The translations under genes and the position numbers were made by a program. The notes below the pieces were generated by a model that saw nothing but the letters and a program-made list of their open reading frames with translations, made no database searches and was not told the origin of the DNA. Shown here in pieces: positions 7,009 through 34,785 of a DNA stretch of 34,785 nucleotides. The DNA is taken from contig JBAZRT010000003.1 of assembly GCA_041662765.1 (NCBI GenBank), positions 3,995-38,779 of the forward strand, given 5' to 3'. How positions within the stretch are numbered: position 1 is the stretch's first letter; each line of letters begins with the position of its first letter. This stretch comes from Parcubacteria group bacterium (GTDB lineage Bacteria; Patescibacteriota; Minisyncoccia; Moranbacterales; UBA11712).

Positions 7009-7530
7009 TTATTCAACCACCATCGCTATGAGATTTCTGCGTCCGAAGGCGAAGGCTTCCGCTTTGGTTGGCATATAGATGTCAAAGTGGTTGGCTTTGA
7101 TCGCACCGCCACGGTCTTCACAGACATAGGTTCCCATTCCGTCAATTTCTATTTTCGTTCCCATCTGATACTGCTTGGGACAAGCAAGAGTGTGATTTGC
7201 CTGGACCTTTTTGCCACTAGCTGTGATCCCGTCGCTCTTTCCGCATTCGTCGGCCGCCGCGGTATAAGCCGAGGCATTCACAACGAAACTTCCTTTTGGC
7301 AATATGAAGTTTTCCGAGAGCAGCTTGTTTTTGTACATTTTTGAATATTGCACATTGCCAACTTTCGGAACATAGAGGGCGACAAGAAAGTTGTCACTGA
7401 GAGTACTTATCTTTTTGTTTTCCAATATTTGTTTGGCATTTTGGTTTGAATCGGCATCCGCTCCGACAGCCGCCGCCGGAATGGCCAGAGCGACAATTGC
7501 AGCAAGAATCAGCGAGGCCAATTTGCGCAT
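7009..7530 (-). CDS. Secreted 3D-domain protein (MltA/RlpA-like double-psi beta-barrel, putative cell-wall glycosidase)
   Basis: Signal peptide MRKLASLILAAIVALAIPAAA. The C-terminal ASAYTAAADECGKSDGITASG...CEDRGGAIKANHFDIYM matches the 3D-domain pattern. Confidence 0.8.
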   Translation of the reverse strand: MRKLASLILAAIVALAIPAAAVGADADSNQNAKQILENKKISTLSDNFLVALYVPKVGNVQYSKMYKNKLLSENFILPKGSFVVNASAYTAAADECGKSDGITASGKKVQANHTLACPKQYQMGTKIEIDGMGTYVCEDRGGAIKANHFDIYMPTKAEAFAFGRRNLIAMVVE

Positions 7531-12079: not shown

Positions 12080-12721
12080 ATGATCGGACCTATCTGGAAA
12101 AAAATATTTGGCTTCACTGGCGAAGTGGCGACTGACGCAGTCGTTATCGGCACCCTGGGCAGAATCTGGAAATCTTTGAAGACTCCTGAATTCAAGGAAG
12201 TCAGACAGGGATTGATAAGTCACGGCGCTTGGCCATTCGGGCTGGGCCTTGCTGACGAGGCCGATTTTCTGGCTAGAGTCGGAAAAGGTTTGAAGCCGGA
12301 AGAAGTTATCAGATTAACTAATTTCCTGGTAACTTTAACCGACCAAGAAAGGACGAAGGTTCGTTGCACTATTGCGGCGATAAAGGAATTTCCGGACCGC
12401 CAAACTTTCAGTGCTGAAAAAGGCGGGCGCAAAACCACGAAGGAGTATACCGCCCGCATAGACGACGCTTTGGCCTTTCTTCAAATCTTGGCCTCTGACA
12501 AACTTTCTAACGCCCAGCGGAAGAAACTTTGCAAAGGTCTTGGACTTCTTGATTTTCCGGACATTCAACTTTCTGCCAGATTGGCAACTGCGGCAAAGAA
12601 AGTCAGGAAAACAAGAAAGAGCCTTGAAAAGAAATATGGCCCACTGAAGGCCGCGACGCCTGCAAGCTCTGGTCATATCGACACGTTTTTCAATTGGCTC
12701 AACCGGGTTTTCCCTGTTTGA
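12080..12721 (+). CDS. Hypothetical soluble, mostly helical protein (213 aa); no recognisable family
   Basis: Long ORF with a good SD (aagggag, 7 nt upstream). The local GC is visibly higher than the surroundings. It ends in a TGA that is in frame with the next ORF. Confidence 0.7.
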   Translation: MIGPIWKKIFGFTGEVATDAVVIGTLGRIWKSLKTPEFKEVRQGLISHGAWPFGLGLADEADFLARVGKGLKPEEVIRLTNFLVTLTDQERTKVRCTIAAIKEFPDRQTFSAEKGGRKTTKEYTARIDDALAFLQILASDKLSNAQRKKLCKGLGLLDFPDIQLSARLATAAKKVRKTRKSLEKKYGPLKAATPASSGHIDTFFNWLNRVFPV

Positions 12722-12739
12722 GCCGGCCAAGGAGACGAC

Positions 12740-13996
12740 ATGAACAGCCTATCACAGATGATCAATGATATCGTAGTGATCTTTCGGATTGCCTTCCGTC
12801 AAACCGGTCTGGATGATACCCAGAGGCTGAGGAATACTCTGATCTCCATAATCGTTCCTCTCGCGGCTTTGTACATCTGCCAGCTAATGCTTAGCGAGTT
12901 GAATGGTATAACCGGTTGGGATCTCTCCTGGATCACAATGGTCTTGTCCATGGCGGCAACATTCTTCATCTTTCGCGCCCTTTTCAACCTCAGGAGATTA
13001 CTCTCCCTGGGTTTTATCGGCGAAGGACTGGAGGCGCTTGGACTTTCTCCGGCAGAATATCCAACTTCCCGTTTATTTCGAGCCTACTGGAATCTCGTGA
13101 AAACGATCTTCTTTTGGGAGCTGGTAATCATCTTCTTTCTGCCATACTTTGATCTAACCCAAAATCCACTTGTTGGATGGTCTCTCTTGGTGGGATCCAT
13201 CGCTTATCTCATTGTGTACCCAGACGGGAAGTTCTTTCAAAAATTCTCCGCCTGGGCGATAGTGGCGATATTGATTTTGATGGTCACGCAAGTGATTATT
13301 TCTCCAGCCGCTTGGATAAAGCTTATTGGAGTGGATCCCTTTGGAGCCATGAGAACTTCAGGGACTGACCGGGTCCTGGCGGAAACACTCTCCGATCAAA
13401 AAGAGGCCGAGGACGCGAAAACCGTAATCCGCCTCAAAGAGATCAAAAAGAAAATCAAGCAGCGCAAGGAACTCTCCCCCGATGACAAGAAATTCATCGA
13501 GGAGCGGAAGAAAGGCCTCGTGCAAGAGACCTTCGGAAAGATCTTTTCTTCGTCCGCCGATGCTAAAAGTTCACCCAAAAAGAAGGAGATGAAACAGTAC
13601 ACGATAATTCGACCGCTTGAATTTCTGGGAGGAGAAAAGATAATTCACGGATCGGGTTGTGTGGGCGTACGGAAAGGTGGAAAGGCCGAGTTTCGAGCCA
13701 CAAACCTTCCGATCGTGAAAGATGGCAAGTACAAAGTAATCTTTCACGCAACCCGTAAAACAACCGGCAGGGATTATCTCTTGGTCAACGCTGGCAAAGG
13801 ACACGGCGGACCGTTCTACTATGATAACCACCCAGCCTCTGACAGCCCCATCGAAATAACCTTTTTTAAGGAGGGTATGCCAGGGGACTCGAAGTACTTC
13901 TATCCGACCGACAACTTTATTCAGCTGTCGGCGGATGACGACTTACTTGTCCAACTGGACAACCCGCCATATGTGGAAATCACATACTGGCAATAA
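12740..13996 (+). CDS. Hypothetical membrane protein: about 6 TM helices, a charged coiled-coil-like linker and a C-terminal ~150-aa beta-rich domain
   Basis: Strong SD aaggag 5 nt before the ATG. Hydrophobic helices span aa 30-200, followed by a KEAEDAKTVIRLKEIKKKIKQRKE linker. I recognise no family. Confidence 0.75.
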   Translation: MNSLSQMINDIVVIFRIAFRQTGLDDTQRLRNTLISIIVPLAALYICQLMLSELNGITGWDLSWITMVLSMAATFFIFRALFNLRRLLSLGFIGEGLEALGLSPAEYPTSRLFRAYWNLVKTIFFWELVIIFFLPYFDLTQNPLVGWSLLVGSIAYLIVYPDGKFFQKFSAWAIVAILILMVTQVIISPAAWIKLIGVDPFGAMRTSGTDRVLAETLSDQKEAEDAKTVIRLKEIKKKIKQRKELSPDDKKFIEERKKGLVQETFGKIFSSSADAKSSPKKKEMKQYTIIRPLEFLGGEKIIHGSGCVGVRKGGKAEFRATNLPIVKDGKYKVIFHATRKTTGRDYLLVNAGKGHGGPFYYDNHPASDSPIEITFFKEGMPGDSKYFYPTDNFIQLSADDDLLVQLDNPPYVEITYWQ

Positions 13997-14074: not shown

Positions 14075-14416
14075 TCATGATCCGCCCAGAAGAAGATCCA
14101 CCGCAGTGATGACCACCAGTCCAATAAGTCCAATAACGACTCCCATGATCGACCAGGTCATCTGCTTTTTGGCTTTTTCCTGAGCCTTGTCATCGCCCGC
14201 GGAAAGAAAATACATTATTCCACTCACAACAAAACTGATAATCGCCAGAAACCCGAAGATTCCCAAAATCCAATTTGTGAGATTTGAGATTACAGTGGTT
14301 AAGTCTTTGTTGGAAAGACCTGTGCCCGTCGGCAACGTAACTTCCGCGCTTGCCGAACAAACGACAAAAAACAATGCGATAGAAAAAGAAGTTAGGCGAA
14401 ATAAATATTTTTTCAT
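14075..14416 (-). CDS. VirB2/TrbC-like 'pilin' family small membrane protein (CPR type), paralog 1
   Basis: Signal peptide (..CSASA/EV), TM1 ILGIFGFLAIISFVVSGIMYFLSAGDD, loop KAQEKAKKQM, TM2 WSIMGVVIGLIGLVVITAV. Confidence 0.8.
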   Translation of the reverse strand: MKKYLFRLTSFSIALFFVVCSASAEVTLPTGTGLSNKDLTTVISNLTNWILGIFGFLAIISFVVSGIMYFLSAGDDKAQEKAKKQMTWSIMGVVIGLIGLVVITAVDLLLGGS

Positions 14417-14439
14417 ATGCTTAAAAATAATTCCAAGAA

Positions 14440-14820
14440 CTAAGTGCCCGTCGCGGTAGCACTCAAGAAGTAATCAATAGCAGTGATCACTACAAGACCG
14501 GCAAGGCCGACGAGCACCCCCGTAATGGAATATATCATCGCCCGCTTGGCTCTTGCCTGCGCGTCTTCGTCACCAGCTGAAATTAAGTAGAGTATTCCGG
14601 AGATCACAAACCCGATCACAGCAATAAAGCCAAAAATAGCCAATAGCCAAAGAGCAAGGTTTGAAATTATGTCGTTCAGCGGTTTTTTGGAAAGTTTCGT
14701 CACATCAAGTTTTGTCTTGTCCCACTGGCCTAGTGCCATCTGCGAATTTGTGAGTGCGACAAAAAATGCCATTGACACCACTGAAAAAAATTTTGTCCAA
14801 TATTTTTTTTGTTTTTCCAT
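14440..14820 (-). CDS. VirB2/TrbC-like 'pilin' family small membrane protein, paralog 2
   Basis: WLLAIFGFIAVIGFVISGILYLISAGDEDAQARAKRAMIYSITGVLVGLAGLVVITAI. It has its own promoter. Confidence 0.8.
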   Translation of the reverse strand: MEKQKKYWTKFFSVVSMAFFVALTNSQMALGQWDKTKLDVTKLSKKPLNDIISNLALWLLAIFGFIAVIGFVISGILYLISAGDEDAQARAKRAMIYSITGVLVGLAGLVVITAIDYFLSATATGT

Positions 14821-14850
14821 TATTTTTTGTTAAGTTTTTAGGTTGATTGG

Positions 14851-14878
14851 ATTATACCATATTTTTTTTGATAAGCAA
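14851..14878 (-). promoter_or_regulatory. Promoter for paralog 2 (TTGCTT-16 nt-TATAAT, TGg extended -10)
   Basis: The reverse complement reads ttgctt atcaaaaaaaatatgg tataat. Confidence 0.5.
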
Positions 14879-14907
14879 AACCCCGTTTCTTGCAAGAGAC
14901 GGGGTTT
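14878..14907 (-). terminator. Rho-independent terminator after paralog 3
   Basis: aaaccccgt / acggggttt stem, with a U-tract on the minus strand. Confidence 0.6.
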
Positions 14908-14930
14908 AAAACTCGAGTTTCAATTGATGA

Positions 14931-15287
14931 CTAGATTTGTTGAGCGCCCAAAAGTTGTTGAGCGGCATAAAGGATGACAAGACCCACAAGACCCACAACA
15001 ACACCCGTAATGGAATATATCATCGCCCGCTTGGCTCTTGCCTGCGCGTCTTCGTCACCAGCCGCGACAAGATACAAAATACCGCTGATAACGAAACCAA
15101 TAACAGCCACAAAACCGAGGATTCCCAAAAGCCAAAGCATTACATTCTGAATAATACTAAATATACTCGATTGCTGAAGACCTGTATTGCCCCCTGCAGT
15201 AAGATCTATTTGAGCCAGTGCTATCGCTGGGACCAGAAAAATGGCAGATGTCAGATACGCTACGGCTATTTTTATTTTTTCCTTCAT
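14931..15287 (-). CDS. VirB2/TrbC-like 'pilin' family small membrane protein, paralog 3
   Basis: WLLGILGFVAVIGFVISGILYLVAAGDEDAQARAKRAMIYSITGVVVGLVGLVILYAA. The start is moved to ATG 15287 because GGGAGGTGA (a strong SD) sits 4 nt upstream of it and lies inside the tracked 15305 start region. Confidence 0.8.
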   Translation of the reverse strand: MKEKIKIAVAYLTSAIFLVPAIALAQIDLTAGGNTGLQQSSIFSIIQNVMLWLLGILGFVAVIGFVISGILYLVAAGDEDAQARAKRAMIYSITGVVVGLVGLVILYAAQQLLGAQQI

Positions 15288-15321
15288 TAATTCACCTCCC
15301 TTCAAAATAAATATTTTTAAA

Positions 15322-15915
15322 TTATCCTCCGATAATATTCTTTACTTGAGTTGCGATTACAAGAGCTGAAAGAGCAACTACGAGACCCAAGATGGAATAA
15401 GTGGCCGTTTTCTTTCCAAGCTCGTATCTTTCATCGTCGCCAACAGCTGTAAGCATCCAAATCGCACCGACTACCATTGATATTATAGCAAGAAAACCGA
15501 CGATTGACAAAAGGAGCTTCAAAATGTTGGCCAGAATTGTCTGGAAGGTCGAACCGGGAGAGTTCCCGCTCAAAATAGCTTTTACTTCCGTATAGATATA
15601 CGGAGCAGCAAGCACGATGGCAAGTCCCGCAATCGCGAAGATGAGTGTTTTTTTTGCCCGCTCGGCTGCTTCTTTTGATCCACCTGAAACCATATACATT
15701 ATACCTCCAAGGATGATGAAAATCACGGCAATTGTTCCGGCAATCTTTTGAAGATAGCTCATAATGCTTGAAAGCACACCTTCGAACGTATCGGTGGGAG
15801 CGAGAGGATTGCCGAAGGTTCCTCCGCTGGTGGTCGTCTGAGCCAAGACAAATGAACCGACGCCAAAGAAAAGAATAGCAGCAAGGAGAAGTAAAACTAA
15901 AGATCTTTTTTTCAT
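15322..15915 (-). CDS. Tandem double VirB2/TrbC-like 'pilin' module protein (197 aa)
   Basis: Two consecutive copies of the TM-loop-TM module: IAVIFIILGGIMYMVSGGSKEAAERAKKTLIFAIAGLAIVLA and IVGFLAIISMVVGAIWMLTAVGDDERYELGKKTATYSILGLVVALSALVIA. Confidence 0.8.
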   Translation of the reverse strand: MKKRSLVLLLLAAILFFGVGSFVLAQTTTSGGTFGNPLAPTDTFEGVLSSIMSYLQKIAGTIAVIFIILGGIMYMVSGGSKEAAERAKKTLIFAIAGLAIVLAAPYIYTEVKAILSGNSPGSTFQTILANILKLLLSIVGFLAIISMVVGAIWMLTAVGDDERYELGKKTATYSILGLVVALSALVIATQVKNIIGG

Positions 15916-15948: not shown

Positions 15949-16674
15949 TTATGGCTCGAGTGGCTCGTATATTTCAATCAATTTATCCAGGCAGGAGGGA
16001 GAGGTCGAAATGATAACGCCATTGAGGGAAACATGATAGTTTATCGAGCTTATTTTTCCTCCCGGCAAACGGACTTCGGCATATCTGAACTTGCCATCCT
16101 TGAATTCCAGTTTTTGATCCAATTCTTCTTTGCTAAAATTCACCTCCGGAAACAATACCGCATGAAGATCGGAAAGCATCGTTTTTTCCCAATTCCCCAT
16201 CCAAGTCAGAGTACCGGAATATAGATTACCCTGGCCCTTACTGACATCATATCCAAAGTATATCGCATATTTTTTTTCATTGCCATCCGCAGGGCAATAA
16301 TACATGTCATAGTCCTTGTTGTCCAAATAAGTTCTTAACTGCCCGATAATCGAGATCTTTGTGGCTTTTCCAAAGTCAGTCAACGGAATTTTATTGCCCT
16401 GCGCGTCCTTGAAGCTTATTGATTCAATTCCTTTATCAACAGCTTGCTGAGAAACTGGAGATTCGGAAATATTCTTGATATTTGTTTGAACACTTTGGAT
16501 GTTTTGTTTGCTATTTTCTGTCTCGGTTGGAAGCACTGTCGGATTCGATACCGACGGTTGTTCGGCATTTTGAATGTTGGTCTTATTTCCGGATTTTGTA
16601 ACAATTAAAAAAGCAAGAGTGATCAGCACCAATATTCCTGTTCCTACTAATATAAATAATGTCTTTTTTTTCAT
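15949..16674 (-). CDS. Hypothetical N-terminally membrane-anchored extracytoplasmic protein
   Basis: Signal anchor LFILVGTGILVLITLAFLIV, a low-complexity S/T/N/Q linker, then a globular ~150-aa domain. I recognise no family. Confidence 0.7.
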   Translation of the reverse strand: MKKKTLFILVGTGILVLITLAFLIVTKSGNKTNIQNAEQPSVSNPTVLPTETENSKQNIQSVQTNIKNISESPVSQQAVDKGIESISFKDAQGNKIPLTDFGKATKISIIGQLRTYLDNKDYDMYYCPADGNEKKYAIYFGYDVSKGQGNLYSGTLTWMGNWEKTMLSDLHAVLFPEVNFSKEELDQKLEFKDGKFRYAEVRLPGGKISSINYHVSLNGVIISTSPSCLDKLIEIYEPLEP

Positions 16675-16695: not shown

Positions 16696-17625
16696 TTAGC
16701 AGCTTGAGGCGGGACAATGATCGGAAGCTTTTATCACTTTCAAAGTTGATCCGTTCTTCGCCGCTTGAGCGCTGATGGATGCCGAACCGCCTCCGCTAGC
16801 ATGAATTCCGTATTTTGTGCTCGCGCCCATAATCTGCGTGCAACCGTCGTTGAGACAAATACCCACATGACCCTTGCTATCTTTACCTGGCAGGCCGTTG
16901 TTCCAAACCAACGCATCCCCAGCTTTGAGACTGCTCGCGCCTGTGAACGCGCTAGCACCTGCAGCCATTGCGCTTGTTGATCCGCCCGGGCTGCTGCATC
17001 CGGCTCTTGTAAAAGCGCGTTCGGTTGTAGATGAACAATCGCCATATCCATCCTTCATTCGAAGACTTGTGTCTGTTGTATATGTCCATCCCTCCATTGC
17101 TTTGACATGTGAAGCAACTGCAGCGCATCCGGTACTCGTCCCCGTATTCGTATTTGTGTTCGTATTTGTGCCTGTCCCAGTGCCCGTACTCGTGCTTGTC
17201 GTTTGTGTCGTGTCGCAAGTGAACTCATACCATTTTCCGCTGAACGGATGTTTGAATCCAAGAGCCGAAAGCGTTGCGTTGATGATAAGCCACGCAACGA
17301 GCGCGAGAACCATCGCAGTAAGAGCATAGGAGAGGGCAGATTTCGCCTTTTCTATCATCCCTTTGTTTCCACTCGAAACCATATACATCACTCCCGCAAC
17401 AACAACCACGAGAGTCGTGGCTGACAAAATAAGCGCCAACAAATAATTGTAAATATTTTGGAATCCAAGGATAAGATGACAGAGCGTGCAGTCCGCATTT
17501 CCTTCCCCAATACCGCAGGGCACCAAAGCTTCGGCAAAAGCACTCGAGACAATACTGAACGAAAAAACAAGCAGGCATGACAAAAATAATGTTTTTAGAA
17601 AAATTTTATTTTTTGCTTTTGTCAT
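16696..17625 (-). CDS. Fusion protein: Cys-containing VirB2/TrbC-like pilin module, T/N/G-rich linker and C-terminal NlpC/P60-like cysteine peptidase
   Basis: N-terminus LVPCGIGEGNADCTLCHL then TM-loop-TM (VVVAGVMYMVSSGNKGMIEKAKSALSYALTAMVLALVAWLI). Linker TSTSTGTGTGTNTNTNTNTGTSTG. C-terminal part has GDCSSTTERAF (Cys197) and GDALVW...KGHVGIC (His253), spaced as in NlpC/P60. Confidence 0.8.
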   Translation of the reverse strand: MTKAKNKIFLKTLFLSCLLVFSFSIVSSAFAEALVPCGIGEGNADCTLCHLILGFQNIYNYLLALILSATTLVVVVAGVMYMVSSGNKGMIEKAKSALSYALTAMVLALVAWLIINATLSALGFKHPFSGKWYEFTCDTTQTTSTSTGTGTGTNTNTNTNTGTSTGCAAVASHVKAMEGWTYTTDTSLRMKDGYGDCSSTTERAFTRAGCSSPGGSTSAMAAGASAFTGASSLKAGDALVWNNGLPGKDSKGHVGICLNDGCTQIMGASTKYGIHASGGGSASISAQAAKNGSTLKVIKASDHCPASSC

Positions 17626-17664: not shown

Positions 17665-19137
17665 TTATTTCCTCAAAAGCACGTTCACTGCGTTTTGTGC
17701 TTGATCAAGTGTGTCATGAAGCGAATTGTTTTTGAGCACCACATTGTCGATCATTCCGTCAAAAATTTTCTCGACCGCGAGATTGTCGGGTTGCGCCCAG
17801 CTTTTGGCGATGAGATTGCCCTGAGCAAAAGGGGAGAGAAGAATATCTGATTTTTGTTTTTCGATAAGATCCCGCCGCGCCGCAGGTTTGGATTGGTTTT
17901 TGATATATTCCGCTGCCGGATCGAAATTAGCACTTTCCGTTCCTGCTGCCGCAACCGGCAAGTTCGCACTGAAGGATTGCGGCATTGTGAGAAAGCGGAT
18001 AAATTTCCAACTTTCGGCAATTCTTTGGTTGTCTGTTGCATAGGTATGCTTGTTTTGCTGGGCCACTTTGATAAATTCCTGATTTTGAGCCTTATTCTTG
18101 GAAACCGCATATCCCCAATAATTGGCAAAATCAACATCCAAACCAGCGCCGTTCGCATCTTTGTTTTGCGGAATTCTGGCAATTCCAAGGGACAGCTTTG
18201 GCGCCCGTTCCCCGATTTGCGGAATAAGCCAGGAATAATTGAGCATCATCGCCGTTTTTCCTTCGATAAAGCTGTCTTTCGAGTTATGTTGGAGAGAATT
18301 CCACGTATAAACATCATTTGCTTGATTTGAAAACTTCGTGTAATAAGCCAACGCCGATTCTCCCGGCGACATTTCGCTTCCATAGGTCGTATTTGTAAAA
18401 TCAGCAAAACTGGCTTGATTGTTTTTCGGGTCCATCATACTCGCACCCGACTGCATCATAAGAAGAGTCAAAATGTCTGTCGCCCGATTTATTTTTCCTG
18501 TACCGGCACTCATATCGCTCGACATTCCCATCGCCGCACCGGAGAGAGTAATGTTTCCAAAAGTGTCGACGCGGGTTATTTTTTTCACCGCGCTGTCAAA
18601 ATCAACCCAGGTCGCCGGAGGTGTTGTTATCCCGGCTTGGTTCAACAAATCTTTGTTGTAGTAAAGCGCAAGAGAATCTACGGAGAGAGGAAGCGCATAT
18701 ATCTTTCCATCAGCAACAAAATCCGAAGAGACAACGCCTGCAAATTGATCTTGGACCTGCTTGGGCGTCACAATATCCGCCTGGCTGGATGAAAGATCAT
18801 CTTTCGGCGCCGATGCCAGCTTGTCTTTATGCTTCGTGAGCCAGGTATTGTGAATAAGAAAGACATCCGGTCCGTTTCCCGTTGCAAGCGCGTCCATCAA
18901 ATCATTTTCGTATGAATCGACAGTGAGTTTTTTGTAGACGATATCTTTCACTCGCGGATTTCTTTTCTGATATTCGCTGATAGCTTTTACCATCACATCC
19001 GAATCATCAAAAAGTCCCCAAACCTCAAGGCGAACTTCATAATTTATCGTTGAATTGTTCGAACATCCACAACCAGAAAGAACGACCATCGAGAGGATAA
19101 GAGCGAAAGAGAAAATAACTGATAATTTTTTCTTCAT
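17665..19137 (-). CDS. Lipoprotein, extracellular solute-binding protein (ABC-type, family 1-like); no cognate permease or ATPase nearby
   Basis: Lipobox LSGC at aa 20-23. LEVWGLFDD...GNGPDVFLIHNTW...YALPLSVDSLALYYNKDLL is typical of sugar-type SBPs. Confidence 0.8.
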   Translation of the reverse strand: MKKKLSVIFSFALILSMVVLSGCGCSNNSTINYEVRLEVWGLFDDSDVMVKAISEYQKRNPRVKDIVYKKLTVDSYENDLMDALATGNGPDVFLIHNTWLTKHKDKLASAPKDDLSSSQADIVTPKQVQDQFAGVVSSDFVADGKIYALPLSVDSLALYYNKDLLNQAGITTPPATWVDFDSAVKKITRVDTFGNITLSGAAMGMSSDMSAGTGKINRATDILTLLMMQSGASMMDPKNNQASFADFTNTTYGSEMSPGESALAYYTKFSNQANDVYTWNSLQHNSKDSFIEGKTAMMLNYSWLIPQIGERAPKLSLGIARIPQNKDANGAGLDVDFANYWGYAVSKNKAQNQEFIKVAQQNKHTYATDNQRIAESWKFIRFLTMPQSFSANLPVAAAGTESANFDPAAEYIKNQSKPAARRDLIEKQKSDILLSPFAQGNLIAKSWAQPDNLAVEKIFDGMIDNVVLKNNSLHDTLDQAQNAVNVLLRK

Positions 19138-19263: not shown

Positions 19264-21696
19264 CTACAGAACCGCCGTGGCAGCGATCTTGTCGTCACCG
19301 TTGAGGCGCATCACGCGCACACCTTGCGTCGCACGGCCGAGAATCGAAATACTCCCCATTGGAACACGAATAATCTGTCCTTTTGCGCTGCTTGCAATGA
19401 GATCTGTTTCAATATTGTCGAGATTGATCATATGCGCGCACACAAGTTTTCAGGTTTTTGGAGTAATCTTCGCCGTTTTGATCCCTGACCCCCCTCGACG
19501 CTGAATTTTGTAGGCTTTCATATCTGTTCTCTTCCCAAATCCGTTTTCGGTGAGGATCAAAAGCTGATTGCCTTTCTGATTTTTGAGTACCACATCCATT
19601 CCAACGACTTGATCATTCTTTTTCAAATTGATCCCGCGCACGCCGGCGGCCGTCCGCCCCATGCCGCGCACGTCCGTTTCCTTGAAATGAATAGCCTGGC
19701 CGGCTGAAGTCGTAATGATGATCTCATCCTTTCCGGTCGTCGGAGCAATCCAGCGCAATTCATCACCTTTGGCCAGATTCAAAGCGATAAGACCCGATCG
19801 GCGAACTTTGGCAAAATCTTCAATGGCTGTTTTTTTCACTGTCCCGAATTTCGTCGCCATAAAAAGATATTTTGCTTGAGAATCTTTACCAATAGTGATA
19901 ATCGCCGTTATTTTTTCGTCCGGAGAAATCTGCAAGAAGTTCACAATCGCCTGACCCTTGGCTGTTCGCGAAGAAACCGGAATTTCATAGGCCTTAGTTT
20001 GGAAAACCTTTCCCGTATTTGTGAAAAAGAAAAGATCGTCGTGCGTCATCGCGCTCACTACCATATCAATCGTATCTCCTTCCTTGGTCGTCGCACCGAT
20101 CACGCCCTTTCCGCCGCGCCTCTGCACGCGATAGAGAGAGGGATTCATTCTTTTAACATAGTTGTCCTCGGTAAAAACGATGATTGCTTCCTCGTTTGGA
20201 ATAAGATCCTCTTGTTTGAATTCGCCCACAGCTGATCTCACCACCCGCGTCCGCCGTTCGTCGGCATACTTATCTTTCAACTCTTTGAGTTCGTCCTTGA
20301 TGACGCCCAATATTTTTTTCGGACTCTTGAGAAGATCTTCAAGCTCTTTGATCAATTTCATTTTTTCTTTGAGTTCATCCTCGATTTTCTGGCGCTCAAG
20401 ACCCGCAAGAGTCTGAAGACGCATTTCGAGGATCGCCGTCGACTGCTTGTCAGACAATTTGAACTTTTTCATCAAATTGTCATGGGCGATCTCTTTCGTG
20501 GCTGATTTTCGAATGGTAGCGATAACCGCATCGATGTGATCAAGCGCTTTTTTGAGACCCTCAAGAATATGCGCCCGCTCTTTCGCGATTCGAAGATCAT
20601 ATTGTGTCCGGCGCGTAACAACAACCTGTCGATGCGCTACGAAATACTCGAGCATCGCCTTGAGATTCAGCACTTTTGGCTCAATTCCATCGACAAGCGC
20701 AAGCATATTCACATGGAACGACTTTTGAAGATCAGTAAGGGTGAAGAGCTTGTTGAGAACTTTTTTCGGGAAAGCTTCTTTTTTGAGTTCTATTACGATC
20801 CGCACTCCGTCCTTGTCTGATTCATCGCGAAGATCTCGGATACCCTCGATTTTTCCGGTTTTCACAAGGTCCGCCATCTTCTCTATCATCGCCGCCTTGT
20901 TTGAAGAATAGGTCATCTCCGTCACAATGATCTGAAATTGTCCGCTTTTTGTTTCGACGATCTCAGTCTCAGCCCGGCAGACAATACTTCCACGGCCAGT
21001 GAGATAGGTCTGCACGATATCCGCTTGGTTGTATATCGATCCGCCCGTCGGAAAATCAGGACCCTTCACAAATTGAGTCAGATCTTTCACATCGCAATCG
21101 GGATTTTCAATGAGATAGGCTATGCCGTCGACCAATTCTCCAAGATTGTGCGGGGGAATACTCGTCGCCATCCCGACCGCAATTCCCATTGTGCCGTTGA
21201 GAAGAAGCTGGGGAACTTTGGCCGGCAGAACGGACGGCTCCTGGCGGGATGAATCATAATTGGGAATAAAATCAACCGTTTCCTTTTCGATATCCGCCAT
21301 CATTTCTTCCGCGAGGCTCGTCATTTTGGCTTCGGTATATCGCATTGCCGCCGCATTGTCGCCATCCATCGAACCGAAGTTTCCCTGACCGTCCACAAGG
21401 GGATAGCGCATGGAAAAATCCTGTGCAAGACGCACCATCGTGTTGTATACTGCCAAATCGCCGTGAGGATGATATTTCCCAAGCACATCTCCGACAACAA
21501 GTGCTGACTTTCGATATTTCGCGCTGTGCGTAAGCCCGAGACCGCGCATGGCAAAAAGGATCCGGCGATGCACCGGCTTCATTCCGTCCCGCACGTCAGG
21601 AAGAGCGCGCGAAACAATCACGCTCATTGCATAGGCGAGATATGATTCCTTCATTTCTGAAGTTATTTCTCTGGGTTTTATATAACCTATTTCCAT
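19264..21696 (-). CDS. gyrA: DNA gyrase subunit A, full length (810 codons) only if the in-frame TGA at 19450-19452 is read through; otherwise truncated at 748 aa
   Basis: N-terminus ..[38 protein letters not shown] (catalytic Tyr). The C-terminal pinwheel repeats continue in the same frame after the TGA ([10 protein letters not shown]...[26 protein letters not shown], then TAG at 19264-19266). Confidence 0.9.
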
Positions 21697-31308: not shown

Positions 31309-32244
31309 TTATTTCCTTCTTTTTCCGTGAAACGCTTTGTGAACTTCCTTGAGTTGTTTGTTCGTCACATGAGTGTATATTTGCGTTGTGGTGACTGAGG
31401 AGTGCCCGAGCATCTCTTGAACCGAGCGGATGTCAGCCCCGTTTTGGATGAGATCGGTCGCAAAAGAATGGCGCAGAGTGTGCGGATGGACATCTTTCAC
31501 GATTCCCGCCTTCAGGGCATAATATTTCACAATGCGCTGAATTGAGCGGGGAGTGAGACGCAAATTATCAGAACTATTTTTCTTTTCCAGACGCTTGATT
31601 CCAATTCTTGCAAATACCGCCGGATCGATATCGGGCCTTTTTTCGAAATATCTCTCAAGCGCGCCTTTCGCCCGATCGGAAATAAAAACCACCCGGATCT
31701 TTCCGCCTTTCCCCCGCACGCTGAATTCCTGCGTTTTGAGATTCACTTGATCCCGGCTGAGATTCGTGAGTTCTGAAACGCGAAGACCGGAGCTATAGAG
31801 CAATTCAAGAATCGCACGATCGCGCAAAGATTTGAGATCCGTGCTCTCTGCAGCTTCAAAAATTCGATCAACCTCATCGCTTTCCAGAAATTCCACTTCC
31901 ATCCGCAAAGTTTTTCCCAGTTCGATTTTGTCAGCCGAAAGCGTTTTCACATCGTGCCTGGCCAGATATTTCAAAAAATTTCGAATGGCGATTACGTGGT
32001 AGTTTTGCGTGATCTTTTTGAGCGGACGCCCTTTCTCATTCGCTTGGCGATTCAAATGCAGCCGAAAACTTCTCACCAAATCATCCGTAATATCACTAGG
32101 TGAACCAATGCGCGCCCAAGCCAAAAAACGTTCGAGATAATGATCATAGTTCTCGATAGTCTTTTGAGAACGGTCCTTCTCGATCTCGAGATATTCCAAA
32201 TATTGAGTTTTGAGCTTCTTTATATCCATTGAAATTTCTGGCAT
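31309..32244 (-). CDS. Tyrosine recombinase, XerC/XerD-like
   Basis: The R...HxxR...Y catalytic pattern is present: RDRAILELLYSSGLRVSEL, HPHTLRHSFATDL and LGHSSVTTTQIYTHV. Confidence 0.9.
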   Translation of the reverse strand: MPEISMDIKKLKTQYLEYLEIEKDRSQKTIENYDHYLERFLAWARIGSPSDITDDLVRSFRLHLNRQANEKGRPLKKITQNYHVIAIRNFLKYLARHDVKTLSADKIELGKTLRMEVEFLESDEVDRIFEAAESTDLKSLRDRAILELLYSSGLRVSELTNLSRDQVNLKTQEFSVRGKGGKIRVVFISDRAKGALERYFEKRPDIDPAVFARIGIKRLEKKNSSDNLRLTPRSIQRIVKYYALKAGIVKDVHPHTLRHSFATDLIQNGADIRSVQEMLGHSSVTTTQIYTHVTNKQLKEVHKAFHGKRRK

Positions 32245-32615
32245 TGCCTGCCGGCGGGCGGATAAGCCTGCCTATTAGATTGTACCAAAAATCGCAAGAA
32301 TTGCCCAATGGGATATTTTACCTTATATAAGCCTTGTCTTATCATTTTTCGTGATTTTTTCACCCCAGGGCGCTTGACACCACCCAGCGATGTGCTAACC
32401 TAGTAGCCGTGTAATAAATTAGGGATCAGAAGGAAATCGCTTCAGTCATTCAGTTTTTCCGCGCCGGCTCGAGCCTCTGATCCAAGAGAGAGGACAAACC
32501 TATTAGTAACCATTTCAACGATTTTCCTCAAGGAAAGCGGGGGAAACTGCGAACTTTGCTAAAAGGCGAGAACTTTCATTCGATCGCTCAAAAAATTCAT
32601 TCCTACCAGATCCGG

Positions 32616-33752
32616 ATGGCGCTGTGCTTAAGACGAAAGTCCTATGCATGTTTCATCGCCGGATGGATCCGGAAATATGCGGCTACCTTTGTGGTAGCTC
32701 TTTGTGTTTTGCTGGTTGCGCTCATCAACATTTCCTCTGGAAAGAACGGGAACGGATCTATTCTTGATACTTTGGCCGGAAAGGACAGCAACCCAAATCC
32801 CATGAAAACAAGAACGAGCCTGGCAACGGAAACCTCCCGGAAAAACAACCTTGCCGTCGCTCCTCTCTCGGATACCAGCTATTCGATTGATTCTGCCAAT
32901 CCTTCAAATGAGGCAGATTATTATTCCGCCGATGATTATGCTTCCATGTATCAGCCCGAACCGACTCTCGATAATCAAATAGTCTTCGCTTCGATTGGAC
33001 CGCAAACACCCGTCGCAAAAGAAAAACGAGGAGCGAAAGTATATGAAGTGAAGAACGGGGATACCGCCGGATCCATCGCCGCCGCTTTTGGAGTTTCAAC
33101 AAGCACTGTTTTGTCGGCCAACAATCTTTCTGATACCTCTCTCCTGAAGTTGGGCGACAAGCTGACGATCCTTCCGATAACGGGCGCGAGCTACAAAATT
33201 CAAAAGGGTGACTCTCTTGAAGCAATCGCGAAAAAATACAATGTTGATTCTAAAAAAATAATTGCTTTCAATGAGTTGTCTGCTGACGGAAAATTGAAGG
33301 AGGGACAAACCCTTGTTCTTCCTGACGGATATCTTTCTCCGGCTGCTCCCGCGGCCGGAGCAGCCGGAACTCAACTGGCTCTTGCTGGTGGCCAGGCTCA
33401 AACCACTGCATCCTCTTATGCTCCTATCAGACTTGGAGGAGGCGGAGGAGGCCATCGCTTCCCGTATGGATATTGCACTTGGTATGTCGCTCAAAAACGT
33501 TATGTTCCCTGGGGCGGAAACGCTTCCTCTTGGCTCGTAAACGCCCGCGCGTCCGGCAAGCCGACCGGAAGAACACCGCGGCCGGGAGCGATTATGGTTT
33601 CAGGTGAATCCCGCTGGGGACATGTGGCACTTGTGGAATCGGTGAGCGGATCGAGTTTCACGGTATCCGAAATGAATTATGTCGGCTTTGGCAGAAAATC
33701 CACCCGTACGATATCCACGAACAGCGGAGTGGTGAGAGGGTTTATATATTAG
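32616..33752 (+). CDS. Peptidoglycan hydrolase: signal anchor, two LysM domains and a C-terminal CHAP domain
   Basis: LysM domains YEVKNGDTAGSIAAAFGVSTSTVLSANNL and YKIQKGDSLEAIAKKYNVDSKKIIAFNEL. CHAP motifs YGYCTWYVAQKR (Cys) and WGHVALVESV (His). The start is uncertain: TTG 32556 was tracked, ATG 32616 is preferred. Confidence 0.88.
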   Translation: MALCLRRKSYACFIAGWIRKYAATFVVALCVLLVALINISSGKNGNGSILDTLAGKDSNPNPMKTRTSLATETSRKNNLAVAPLSDTSYSIDSANPSNEADYYSADDYASMYQPEPTLDNQIVFASIGPQTPVAKEKRGAKVYEVKNGDTAGSIAAAFGVSTSTVLSANNLSDTSLLKLGDKLTILPITGASYKIQKGDSLEAIAKKYNVDSKKIIAFNELSADGKLKEGQTLVLPDGYLSPAAPAAGAAGTQLALAGGQAQTTASSYAPIRLGGGGGGHRFPYGYCTWYVAQKRYVPWGGNASSWLVNARASGKPTGRTPRPGAIMVSGESRWGHVALVESVSGSSFTVSEMNYVGFGRKSTRTISTNSGVVRGFIY

Positions 33753-33801: not shown

Positions 33802-34785
33802 TCATTCGCTCAACCAAATCCAAAATTGATTAAGCAATTCTTCTTTTAGCTTGTGCGTATCAGCGTGTGAAAGAACGCCGAGATAGGATTGCAAAGATTG
33901 GTTTAGGGATTTCTTATCAATTTCCCCTGCCTTATGTTGGGCAATCCGCATTTTCAATTTCCTGAATATCCGTTTTTTTGTTTTGTTTCGGATAGCCCTA
34001 TAGTGGGGAAGGACAACATAGCCGAGAAAATCAACGCCTTGGCGGTATTTCCTGATTTTTATTTTCTTGGGATGCAATTCCAAGGCAAGTTTCTCTTTCA
34101 GAAAAGAGCTTATGGACTTCAGGGTATCCAGCAAATAATTTTTATCGCTCGCAACAATTACAAAATCATCGGTATAGCGTGCATAGCTTTTTATTTTCAG
34201 TCTCTGCTTCACGAACTGGTCAAGATCATTAAGGTAAACATTCGCAAAAAGCTGAGAGGTTAGATTTCCAATCGGCAGTCCTCTCGCATAAAAAATATCT
34301 GAATGTTCGGAGGAAAAACTATCAATAATTTCCTTCAAAAGCCAGCGGGCATTTTCGTCCTTTATTCTTTTTTTCAAAATTATCTTCAGTATTGAGTGGT
34401 CGACAGACCCGAAGAATTTTTTGACATCGCACTTCAAAATAAAGCAGGACTTGGAATAATTTTTCGTTTCTTTTCTTATCATACTTTCCAGGGCTGAAAC
34501 TCCTTTATGCGTCCCTTTTCCAATCCGGCACGAATATGAACCAGAAATAAAAGTTTCTTCAAAAATAGGGTTGAGCACCGAAAAAACGGCGTGGTGCAAA
34601 ACTCTGTCCCTGACATCTGCTTTATGGATGTGCCTTTGCTTGGGGTCTTGGATAAAAAATGAAGAATAACAGCCGTGCTTATACGTGCACCCCCGCAATT
34701 CCCGATGAAGCTGGAAAATGTTTTGCTCTAATTCCCATTCAAACTTTCGGACGTCTTTCTTTTTCTGTTTGTCATATTTGAAGTT
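33802..34785 (-). CDS. Diversity-generating-retroelement (DGR)-type reverse transcriptase, 5'-truncated by the window edge
   Basis: The frame stays open from 34698 to the window end (NFKYDKQKKKDVRKFEWELEQNIFQLHRELRGCTY). Motifs are FIQDPKQRHIHKADVRDRVLHHAV, SYSCRIGKGTH, GLPIGNLTSQLFANVYL (the IGxxxSQ signature of DGR RTs) and RYTDDFVIV. Confidence 0.8.
   Translation of the reverse strand, partial: NFKYDKQKKKDVRKFEWELEQNIFQLHRELRGCTYKHGCYSSFFIQDPKQRHIHKADVRDRVLHHAVFSVLNPIFEETFISGSYSCRIGKGTHKGVSALESMIRKETKNYSKSCFILKCDVKKFFGSVDHSILKIILKKRIKDENARWLLKEIIDSFSSEHSDIFYARGLPIGNLTSQLFANVYLNDLDQFVKQRLKIKSYARYTDDFVIVASDKNYLLDTLKSISSFLKEKLALELHPKKIKIRKYRQGVDFLGYVVLPHYRAIRNKTKKRIFRKLKMRIAQHKAGEIDKKSLNQSLQSYLGVLSHADTHKLKEELLNQFWIWLSE

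Follow-up and report, generated by a model that had tools for sequence, protein, structure and literature searches.

The 34,785-nt stretch of Parcubacteria contig JBAZRT010000003.1 that we analyzed (the window), from an ultra-small bacterium of the Moranbacteria type (Patescibacteria), encodes on its minus strand (-) a 309-residue protein in which a VirB2-like pilin hairpin, a low-complexity linker, and an NlpC/P60 peptidase domain are joined in one open reading frame (ORF; 16696..17625, -; ATG start, TAA stop). The initial annotation had described a single ORF with these three parts. The ORF is exact, every part is real, and the covalent fusion is genuine and conserved across homologues. We consider it probable that the protein is a pilin-anchored, extracytoplasmic cell wall endopeptidase that has a cognate partner and serves a co-encoded pilin array apart from the ATPases of a type IV secretion system (T4SS), which would amount to a VirB1-like role of the monoderm kind, placed on a VirB2-like module.

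The N-terminal part of the fusion has the layout of VirB2-like proteins: a signal peptide, two long hydrophobic helices, and a short basic loop, SSGNKGMIEKAK, between them. The Sec-type signal peptide (M1 to A31; 17533..17625, -) has a hydrophobic core, ends in AFA, and is followed by Glu; the AlphaFold2 (AF2) model contains a helix at residues 5-28, and the -3/-1 rule places the likely cleavage site after A31. An exposed Cys-rich segment comes next (E32 to H50, residues 32-50; 17476..17532, -), and its pattern LVPC37G-x8-C46TLC49H50 is invariant in 28 of 28 and in 69 of 71 relatives. The hairpin itself (helices 48-83 and 88-121; 17263..17484, -) is modeled with a predicted local distance difference test score (pLDDT) of 83-92, and residues 56-116 match PF18895 (T4SS_pilin) with 30.1 bits, which passes the gathering score of 26.6. 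The AF2 helices and the Pfam match thus agree with the signal peptide, Cys-rich segment, and two-helix pilin module originally proposed. In NCBIfam, the fusion gives a weak match to a pilin-like family of Mycoplasma integrative and conjugative elements (ICEs) and nothing else. Past the hairpin lies a conserved motif, W132-x2-F-T-C137-D-T-T-Q141 (WYEFTCDTTQ; 17203..17232, -), that stands directly before the variable part of the protein; C137 is found in 71 of 71 relatives and D138 in 70 of 71.

Across 28 full-length relatives the invariant residues are C37, C46, C49, H50, C137, D138, C197, and H253. Four of these cysteines bracket the hairpin, three of them (C37, C46, and C49) preceding helix 1 and the fourth (C137) following helix 2, and they may well form disulfides. 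From the signal peptide and the positive-inside loop, both hairpin ends are predicted to lie outside once the signal peptide is cleaved, with the basic loop inside and the peptidase held outside on its tether. Given a predicted extracytoplasmic peptidase on a flexible tether, the earlier suggestion that tethering would localize wall cutting is a fair inference. We note that residues 46-50 (17476-17490, -) read C-T-L-C-H, an exact CXXCH heme-c attachment string in an extramembrane position at the start of helix 1. A heme-c reading of C46-T-L-C49-H50 was considered and set aside, as the membrane-interface position and the invariant C37 and C137 suit disulfides or a metal site better; together with C37 and C137, the string probably makes up a disulfide or metal bracket. 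Nine relatives (P0014, P0029, P0057-P0059, P0063, P0074, P0080, P0090) contain an extra Cys-rich domain and a low-complexity spacer before the LVPC motif, so that both exposed hairpin ends are decorated in these proteins.

The C-terminal domain (residues 167-309, 143 residues; 16699..17127, -) is an NlpC/P60 peptidase by fold and catalytic dyad, with its activity being a prediction from sequence and model. The AF2 model of the fusion, for which 71 homologues were given as input, has a mean pLDDT of 82.9 and exceeds 90 throughout residues 167-309. The best 20 Foldseek matches in the PDB are all NlpC/P60 proteins at probability 1.0, with target-length-normalized TM-scores of 0.33-0.75 (0.56-0.75 against single-domain targets). 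A search with the single tail sequence finds CwlO at 4e-4, and a profile of 25 tails searched against the PDB finds Spr/MepS (2.2e-16), CTn7-Orf16 (3.6e-14), CTn1-Orf17 (1.8e-13), CwlO (7.5e-12), RipA, and others; the CHAP match in Pfam is 16.6 bits. Cys197 (codon TGT, 17035..17037, -) lies in the D-C-S motif of GDCSS at a helix start and aligns with Spr Cys68, and His253 (codon CAT, 16867..16869, -) lies in the H-V-G-I strand of GHVGI and aligns with Spr His119. Both residues are invariant in alignments A1 and A3 and are retained even among tails with only 14-30% identity. The structure search and the profile alignment to Spr agree with the initial annotation on GDCSS and GHVGI. The likely substrate is peptidoglycan. 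The d,l-endopeptidases MepS/Spr of E. coli and CwlO, LytE, and LytF of B. subtilis share the fold, the Cys in DCS, and the His in the HVGI strand. The head of the fusion differs from them in having six additional Cys and a Gly in place of Spr His131, and its anchor is a pilin hairpin, whereas MepS/CwlO-type anchors are lipid, LysM, or coiled-coil.

This architecture is widespread. A word-indexed search returned 90 homologues at E ≤ 1e-3, many of which carry both PF18895 and PF00877; their names are mostly absent or read Moranbacteria or Parcubacteria, and some are called "cell wall-associated NlpC family hydrolase" by JGI. An exhaustive search of 1.84 billion representatives of 50%-identity clusters gave 5145 matches at E ≤ 1e-3, 811 of them at E ≤ 1e-10, and about 33 among the best 150 of the 5145 clusters have the hairpin and the peptidase in one protein. 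In 55 of 71 homologues, the Cys and the His are both kept behind the pilin module. Judged from these sequence comparisons, the fusion is far beyond chance.

The hairpin and the head are connected by a T/S/G/N-rich linker of 25 residues, TTSTSTGTGTGTNTNTNTNTGTSTG (residues 142-166; 17128..17202, -). The AF2 pLDDT falls below 50 over residues 141-162, as for a disordered tether. A linker had been placed earlier at 17128-17214; it is real, but that stretch also takes in CDTTQ, and the linker proper occupies 17128-17202. The label "microsatellite-like" overstated its repetitiveness. The only true tandem repeat that Tandem Repeats Finder reports is a 12-nt unit, TTCGTATTTGTG, present twice (17147..17170, no strand assigned), which can alternatively be described as a 6-nt period present four times with a 77% match. 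The linker is low-complexity coding sequence, not a microsatellite. The initial annotation had also recommended aligning related sequences over this stretch, and we compared Logan contigs of the public sequencing runs X1 (the likely source run), X2 (freshwater), X5, X6, and X7. The contigs of X2 and X6 match the window with about 92-96% identity where they cover it and differ from it by +6 nt at 17130/17131, -12 nt at 17168, and +3 nt at 17235; the 12-nt deletion removes exactly one copy of the repeat unit. The contigs of X5 and X7 are 98-99% identical in the peptidase domain and diverge sharply at 17130 into a GTGTGT-type linker, of which 16-20 nt are visible. Among the 71 homologues, nearly all have linkers of 17-40 residues, with free composition. 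Because of these indels, the sharp divergence, and the spread of lengths, variation of the linker in length and sequence between strains is real. Slippage, which had been proposed as its source, is in keeping with length differences between close strains that include a deletion of one whole unit, but the repeat is too short for a contingency locus. As a separate observation, 43 of the 71 relatives (alignment A2, P0002-P0079) contain a G-[GA]-T-L-P-[GA] motif inside the linker that the window protein does not have; this motif could be a processing or modification site.

The more important property of the linker, which was missed earlier, is that it separates the conserved module from a head that is exchanged. 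We compared 14 syntenic Moranbacteria loci (the window and L001-L013). The order of a gene for an SBP_bac_1 lipoprotein, the fusion, and a g241-type gene is the same in 14 of 14, with a further pilin-like gene next in 13; g241 is the gene directly downstream of the fusion (15949..16674, -). Between the window and L002, identity is 95% for gyrA, 82% for the lipoprotein, 71% for the N-terminal module, and 83% for the double pilin that follows g241, but it drops to 36% for the head and 32% for g241. Between the window and L001, the head and g241 are each 71% identical. The divergence is not clock-like: in L003, where the lipoprotein is 65% identical, head and g241 are 49% each, which is above the values for the closer L002. 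The drop in identity falls inside residues 141-160, within the linker and just past the invariant FTCDTTQ, and is seen against L002, L004, L005, and L008. A constant N-terminal part is thus followed by a C-terminal domain that is exchanged between close relatives at a fixed junction.

Pairwise identities across the 14 loci show which genes travel together. Head and g241 are correlated (Mantel r = 0.75-0.81, p = 2e-4), and the correlation persists after control for the lipoprotein or the N-terminal module (partial Mantel r = 0.79-0.81, p = 2e-4) and in the nine NlpC/P60 loci alone (r = 0.81, p = 2e-4). The lipoprotein tracks the N-terminal module (r = 0.89, p = 2e-4), as does the double pilin (r = 0.66, p = 4e-4), while head and N-terminal module show no significant correlation (r = 0.13). 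Neither the pilin module nor either flanking gene takes part in this co-variation of head and g241. We infer that the head and the downstream g241 are exchanged together as a single cassette, whose upstream breakpoint is the linker. The cassette does not have a foreign-DNA signature, with 51-52% G+C in the head, 39-41% in g241, and no uniform signal over the block; the difference between the two is probably explained by amino acid composition.

In the g241 protein, a disordered spacer connects an N-terminal transmembrane (TM) anchor to an ectodomain of about 185 residues; members of its family are 240-270 residues long. The word-indexed search finds 20 homologues, and the downstream proteins of the 14 syntenic loci form a single family (phmmer E ≤ 2e-15) that accompanies NlpC/P60 and LAS-type heads alike. 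The AF2 model has a pLDDT of 82.7 and a predicted TM-score of 0.74. Foldseek finds no fold relative in the PDB (best match E = 0.13), and searches of Pfam, NCBIfam, and PHROGs give no match; from its model, g241 may be a new fold family. A diverged VirB8/PrgL protein (NTF2-like) was considered for g241 and rejected, since a confident model still has no better PDB match than this and the three family searches are empty. A phage origin of the fusion or of g241 was also rejected, as neither has PHROG matches. The ectodomain is predicted to share the compartment of the head, and g241 most likely binds the head as its cognate partner, acting either as a regulator or as an immunity-like protector. 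In a second subfamily (L014-L030, L042, L044, L045, L051, L067) the g241 family is replaced by a conserved N-anchored protein of about 380-387 residues (MSxLKKIFFxSLF...), which is encoded directly after the Cys-bracketed pilin both where that pilin stands alone and where it is part of a fusion.

Across GTDB species, scanned with one genome each, 68 loci were found, almost all of them labeled Moraniibacteriota, Moranbacteria, or Parcubacteria; some records bear other names, such as "uncultured Bdellovibrionales" and, in one case, "Bathyarchaeia", and are putatively mislabeled. The pilin module with C-[TS]-x-C-H is found in 72 ORFs of these loci and carries a range of C-terminal parts. It is stand-alone (<170 residues) in 20 of the 72, ends in NlpC/P60 domains of several subtypes in about 8, and bears a tail with the pattern S-C-H-x-G-G ... 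H-x-H-[IVL]-S in 15 (species representatives L005, L007, L010-L012, L014, L018-L020, L022, L023, L026, L032, L045, and L067). This last tail is not recognized by Pfam, and its profile matches the zinc site of the Hedgehog N-domain, a LAS-type peptidase fold, at E = 1.5e-3. Other tails include SLT/SLT_3 lysozyme-like, fn3, CBM6/CBM35, BD-FAE-type esterase, and Peptidase_M64-like domains as well as Cys-rich repeats.

The fusion gene lies in a co-oriented run on the minus strand. Upstream, in 14 of 14 syntenic loci, is the SBP_bac_1 lipoprotein gene (17665..19137, -), whose product has an LSGC lipobox; no ABC permease or ATPase is found near it. Downstream of g241 follow the double pilin with two PF18895 modules (15322..15915, -), which tracks the N-terminal module and not the head, and three genes for single PF18895 pilins (14931-15305, 14440-14820, and 14075-14416; together 14075..15305, -), so that the operon holds five PF18895 modules besides the fusion. 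The surroundings are ordinary chromosome, with nusA, ppa, tig, clpP, rplS, gyrA, a gene for an S1 RNA-binding domain protein, gmk, tilS, and ftsH. The same order of lipoprotein, fusion, g241, double pilin, and three pilins, with the same housekeeping flanks, is found in L001 (a 185-kb ENA contig) and L002 (a 128-kb JGI contig). Two further genes (12080-13996, +), encoding a soluble protein of 213 residues and a multi-TM protein of 418 residues, converge on the pilin array and are conserved in L001 and L002; family searches with both proteins are empty. Elsewhere in the window, further genes with links to the cell wall or to mobile elements code for a 3D-domain protein (7009-7530, -), a LysM/endolysin-like protein (32556-33752), a tyrosine recombinase (31309-32244), and a reverse transcriptase cut off by the end of the window (33802-34785). 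We also note that gyrA (minus strand) stops at a TGA (19450-19452) after 748 residues, where L001 and L002 have a Gly codon (GGA or GGG) followed by 61 codons that are in frame in the window too. TGA ends three other genes of the window, and in gyrA it appears to have arisen by one G-to-T substitution, which would be a sequencing error or else a genuine nonsense or read-through codon, with no change of the genetic code.

Taken together, the arrangement suggests the following mechanism. The fusion would be exported by Sec and, after cleavage of the signal peptide, would sit in the membrane as a VirB2-type hairpin with both ends outside. A disordered tether of about 25 residues would keep the disulfide-rich NlpC/P60 cysteine peptidase in the wall compartment, where it may cleave the stem peptides of peptidoglycan, in the producer's own wall or that of a host, beside the site at which the co-encoded pilins are inserted or assembled. 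The head would thereby take on a VirB1-like, wall-opening role for a pilin array encoded away from the T4SS ATPases. Head and g241 would be exchanged as a unit with the linker as the upstream boundary, and g241 would bind the head.

Published work gives this proposal a setting. Patescibacteria T4SSs are of the monoderm type with pilin arrays (PMC10633639, PMC12102498). The initial annotation had taken a separate VirB1 lytic transglycosylase to be normal in T4SS loci, a premise that describes diderm systems; in Patescibacteria, VirB1 homologues are seldom next to virB4, and T4SS loci are mostly without recognizable VirB1-type wall hydrolases (PMC12102498). The hydrolases of monoderm T4SSs are membrane-anchored and multidomain, with CHAP or NlpC/P60 domains (PMC12857230). 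These monoderm VirB1-like proteins, among them PrgK of pCF10, TraG of pIP501, Orf14 of Tn916, and CwlT of ICEBs1, share with the fusion a membrane anchor and extracellular CHAP/NlpC/P60-type domains, and the predicted extracellular domain of the fusion is related to hydrolases of conjugative elements (CTn7-Orf16, CTn1-Orf17, Tn916-like). They differ from it in having a single TM anchor and in lying inside a T4SS operon, whereas the fusion has a VirB2-type hairpin and its locus has no T4SS core genes. The VirB2-like arrays described in Patescibacteria (Southlakia epibionticum SEML1_0006-0019, Wang 2023, PMC10633639; Quinonero-Coronel 2025, PMC12102498) have in common with the array here PF18895, tandem divergent pilins, and a monoderm Candidate Phyla Radiation (CPR) genome. 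Their members are described as small pilins that stand alone, in many cases near virB4; in the array here, one member bears a 143-residue enzyme head, and the array of five modules plus the fusion stands apart from recognizable T4SS genes. Papers on CPR T4SSs and a 2025 review of T4SSs report pilin arrays and point out that VirB1 homologues are scarce. We found no description of a VirB2-hydrolase fusion in them or in full-text literature searches. The arrangement is thus undescribed in the papers searched, while databases already label some members with both domains.

Several observations weigh against the role that we favor. The locus is not a T4SS locus, contrary to what the initial annotation implied: VirB4, VirD4, VirB6, and VirB3 are not recognized in the 34.8-kb window or within ±10 kb of the locus in L001 and L002, and the fusion therefore lacks the location inside a T4SS gene cluster that marks monoderm VirB1-like hydrolases. 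The single-sequence Pfam match of the head to PF00877 (residues 196-274) scores 22.8 bits, 0.2 under the curated cutoff of 23.0; the L001 orthologue scores 24.1 bits. In the NlpC/P60 family, a third polar residue (His, Asn, Glu, Asp, or Gln) is expected about 12 residues past the catalytic His, and the column of Spr His131 instead holds Gly267 (16825..16827, -). The recommended profile and structure searches on residues 167-309 thus confirm the fold, the Cys, and the His, but not the third catalytic residue. With Gly267 in place of a third triad residue, the head can at most be an enzyme with a Cys-His dyad; it may have low activity or rely on another residue. In the 71 relatives, this column holds Gly in 24, His in 15, Ser in 7, and Asn in 4. 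With regard to the partner, the 14 loci have a single g241 family and not one that differs with the effector fold, which sets it apart from classical immunity proteins, and simple physical linkage could explain part of the co-variation between head and g241. The "pilin" function of PF18895 is itself mostly putative. Finally, the evidence is computational throughout.

A different use of the same parts is rather unlikely. The fusion could be a minor or decorating subunit of a VirB2-type filament, displaying an exchangeable lytic head that attacks the wall of a host or competitor while g241 protects the producer. The conserved N-terminal module, junction motif, variable head, and co-varying downstream gene would fit such an armed filament, as would the several classes of wall hydrolase among the heads and the predicted placement of the g241 ectodomain in the head's compartment. 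T4SS genes and pilins are, moreover, essential for growth on the host cell in the one cultured member of the Patescibacteria that has been tested (PMC10633639, PMC12857230). In polymorphic effector-immunity systems whose effectors are wall hydrolases (Xanthomonas T4SS X-Tfe/X-Tfi, T6SS Tae/Tai amidases, CdiA-CT/CdiI layout), too, an N-terminal part that stays constant leads through a conserved junction motif into a variable C-terminal enzyme, and the adjacent gene co-varies with that enzyme. The likeness is at the level of genes; in those systems the constant part is a secretion signal or stalk, whereas here it is a pilin hairpin, and here one partner family spans unrelated head folds. The same module also bears fn3, CBM, and esterase tails, and no orphan head-plus-partner cassettes are found downstream. 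This explanation is weakened because one partner family serves NlpC/P60 and LAS heads alike and because evidence of a pilus or of epibiont life is absent in this lineage. A broader version is slightly more doubtful again. It would hold that, in Moranbacteria, a Cys-bracketed VirB2-type pilin carries exchangeable wall-degrading heads (NlpC/P60, Hedgehog/LAS zinc peptidases, SLT), each with a co-evolving guard or gate of the g241 family, and that the fusion, in, at the base of, or at the tip of a T4SS-type filament, arms the opening of the host wall as part of a polymorphic effector-partner system.

It is improbable that the protein is an ordinary autolysin on a generic two-helix anchor, remodeling the cell's own wall for growth or division with no link to a T4SS or pilus. 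The absence of T4SS machinery nearby, the housekeeping neighbors (gyrA, the S1 RNA-binding domain protein gene, gmk, tilS), and the identity of the best sequence relatives, MepS and CwlO, which are growth autolysins, would all suit such a role. It is made less likely by the conserved operon with five PF18895 modules and by the swapping of heads, whose non-clock-like pattern is unusual in housekeeping autolysins; the anchor, too, scores above the PF18895 threshold. Very unlikely is a head with weak or no catalytic activity that binds peptidoglycan and tethers the hairpin or the pilin array to the wall: Gly267 and the borderline Pfam score point that way, but even very divergent tails strictly retain Cys197 and His253, and papain-fold enzymes retain some activity without the third residue. 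An assembly artefact joining a pilin gene to a peptidase gene, the refuting possibility raised earlier, is effectively excluded because contigs of X2 and X6, from independent studies, run unbroken from the peptidase domain into the hairpin, and dozens of homologues across JGI, ENA, NCBI, and Logan have the same architecture, even though the X1 contigs (depth about 5.6) break within the linker at 17135/17147.

Of these results, the measured correlation between head and g241 most deserves testing, and g241 can be flagged as a confidently modeled protein family that has no solved structural relative. Patescibacteria make up a large share of bacterial diversity. A pilin that would carry its own wall-cutting enzyme, together with a head and partner exchanged as a pair, offers a concrete and testable link between the pilins of these bacteria and the breaching of cell walls.

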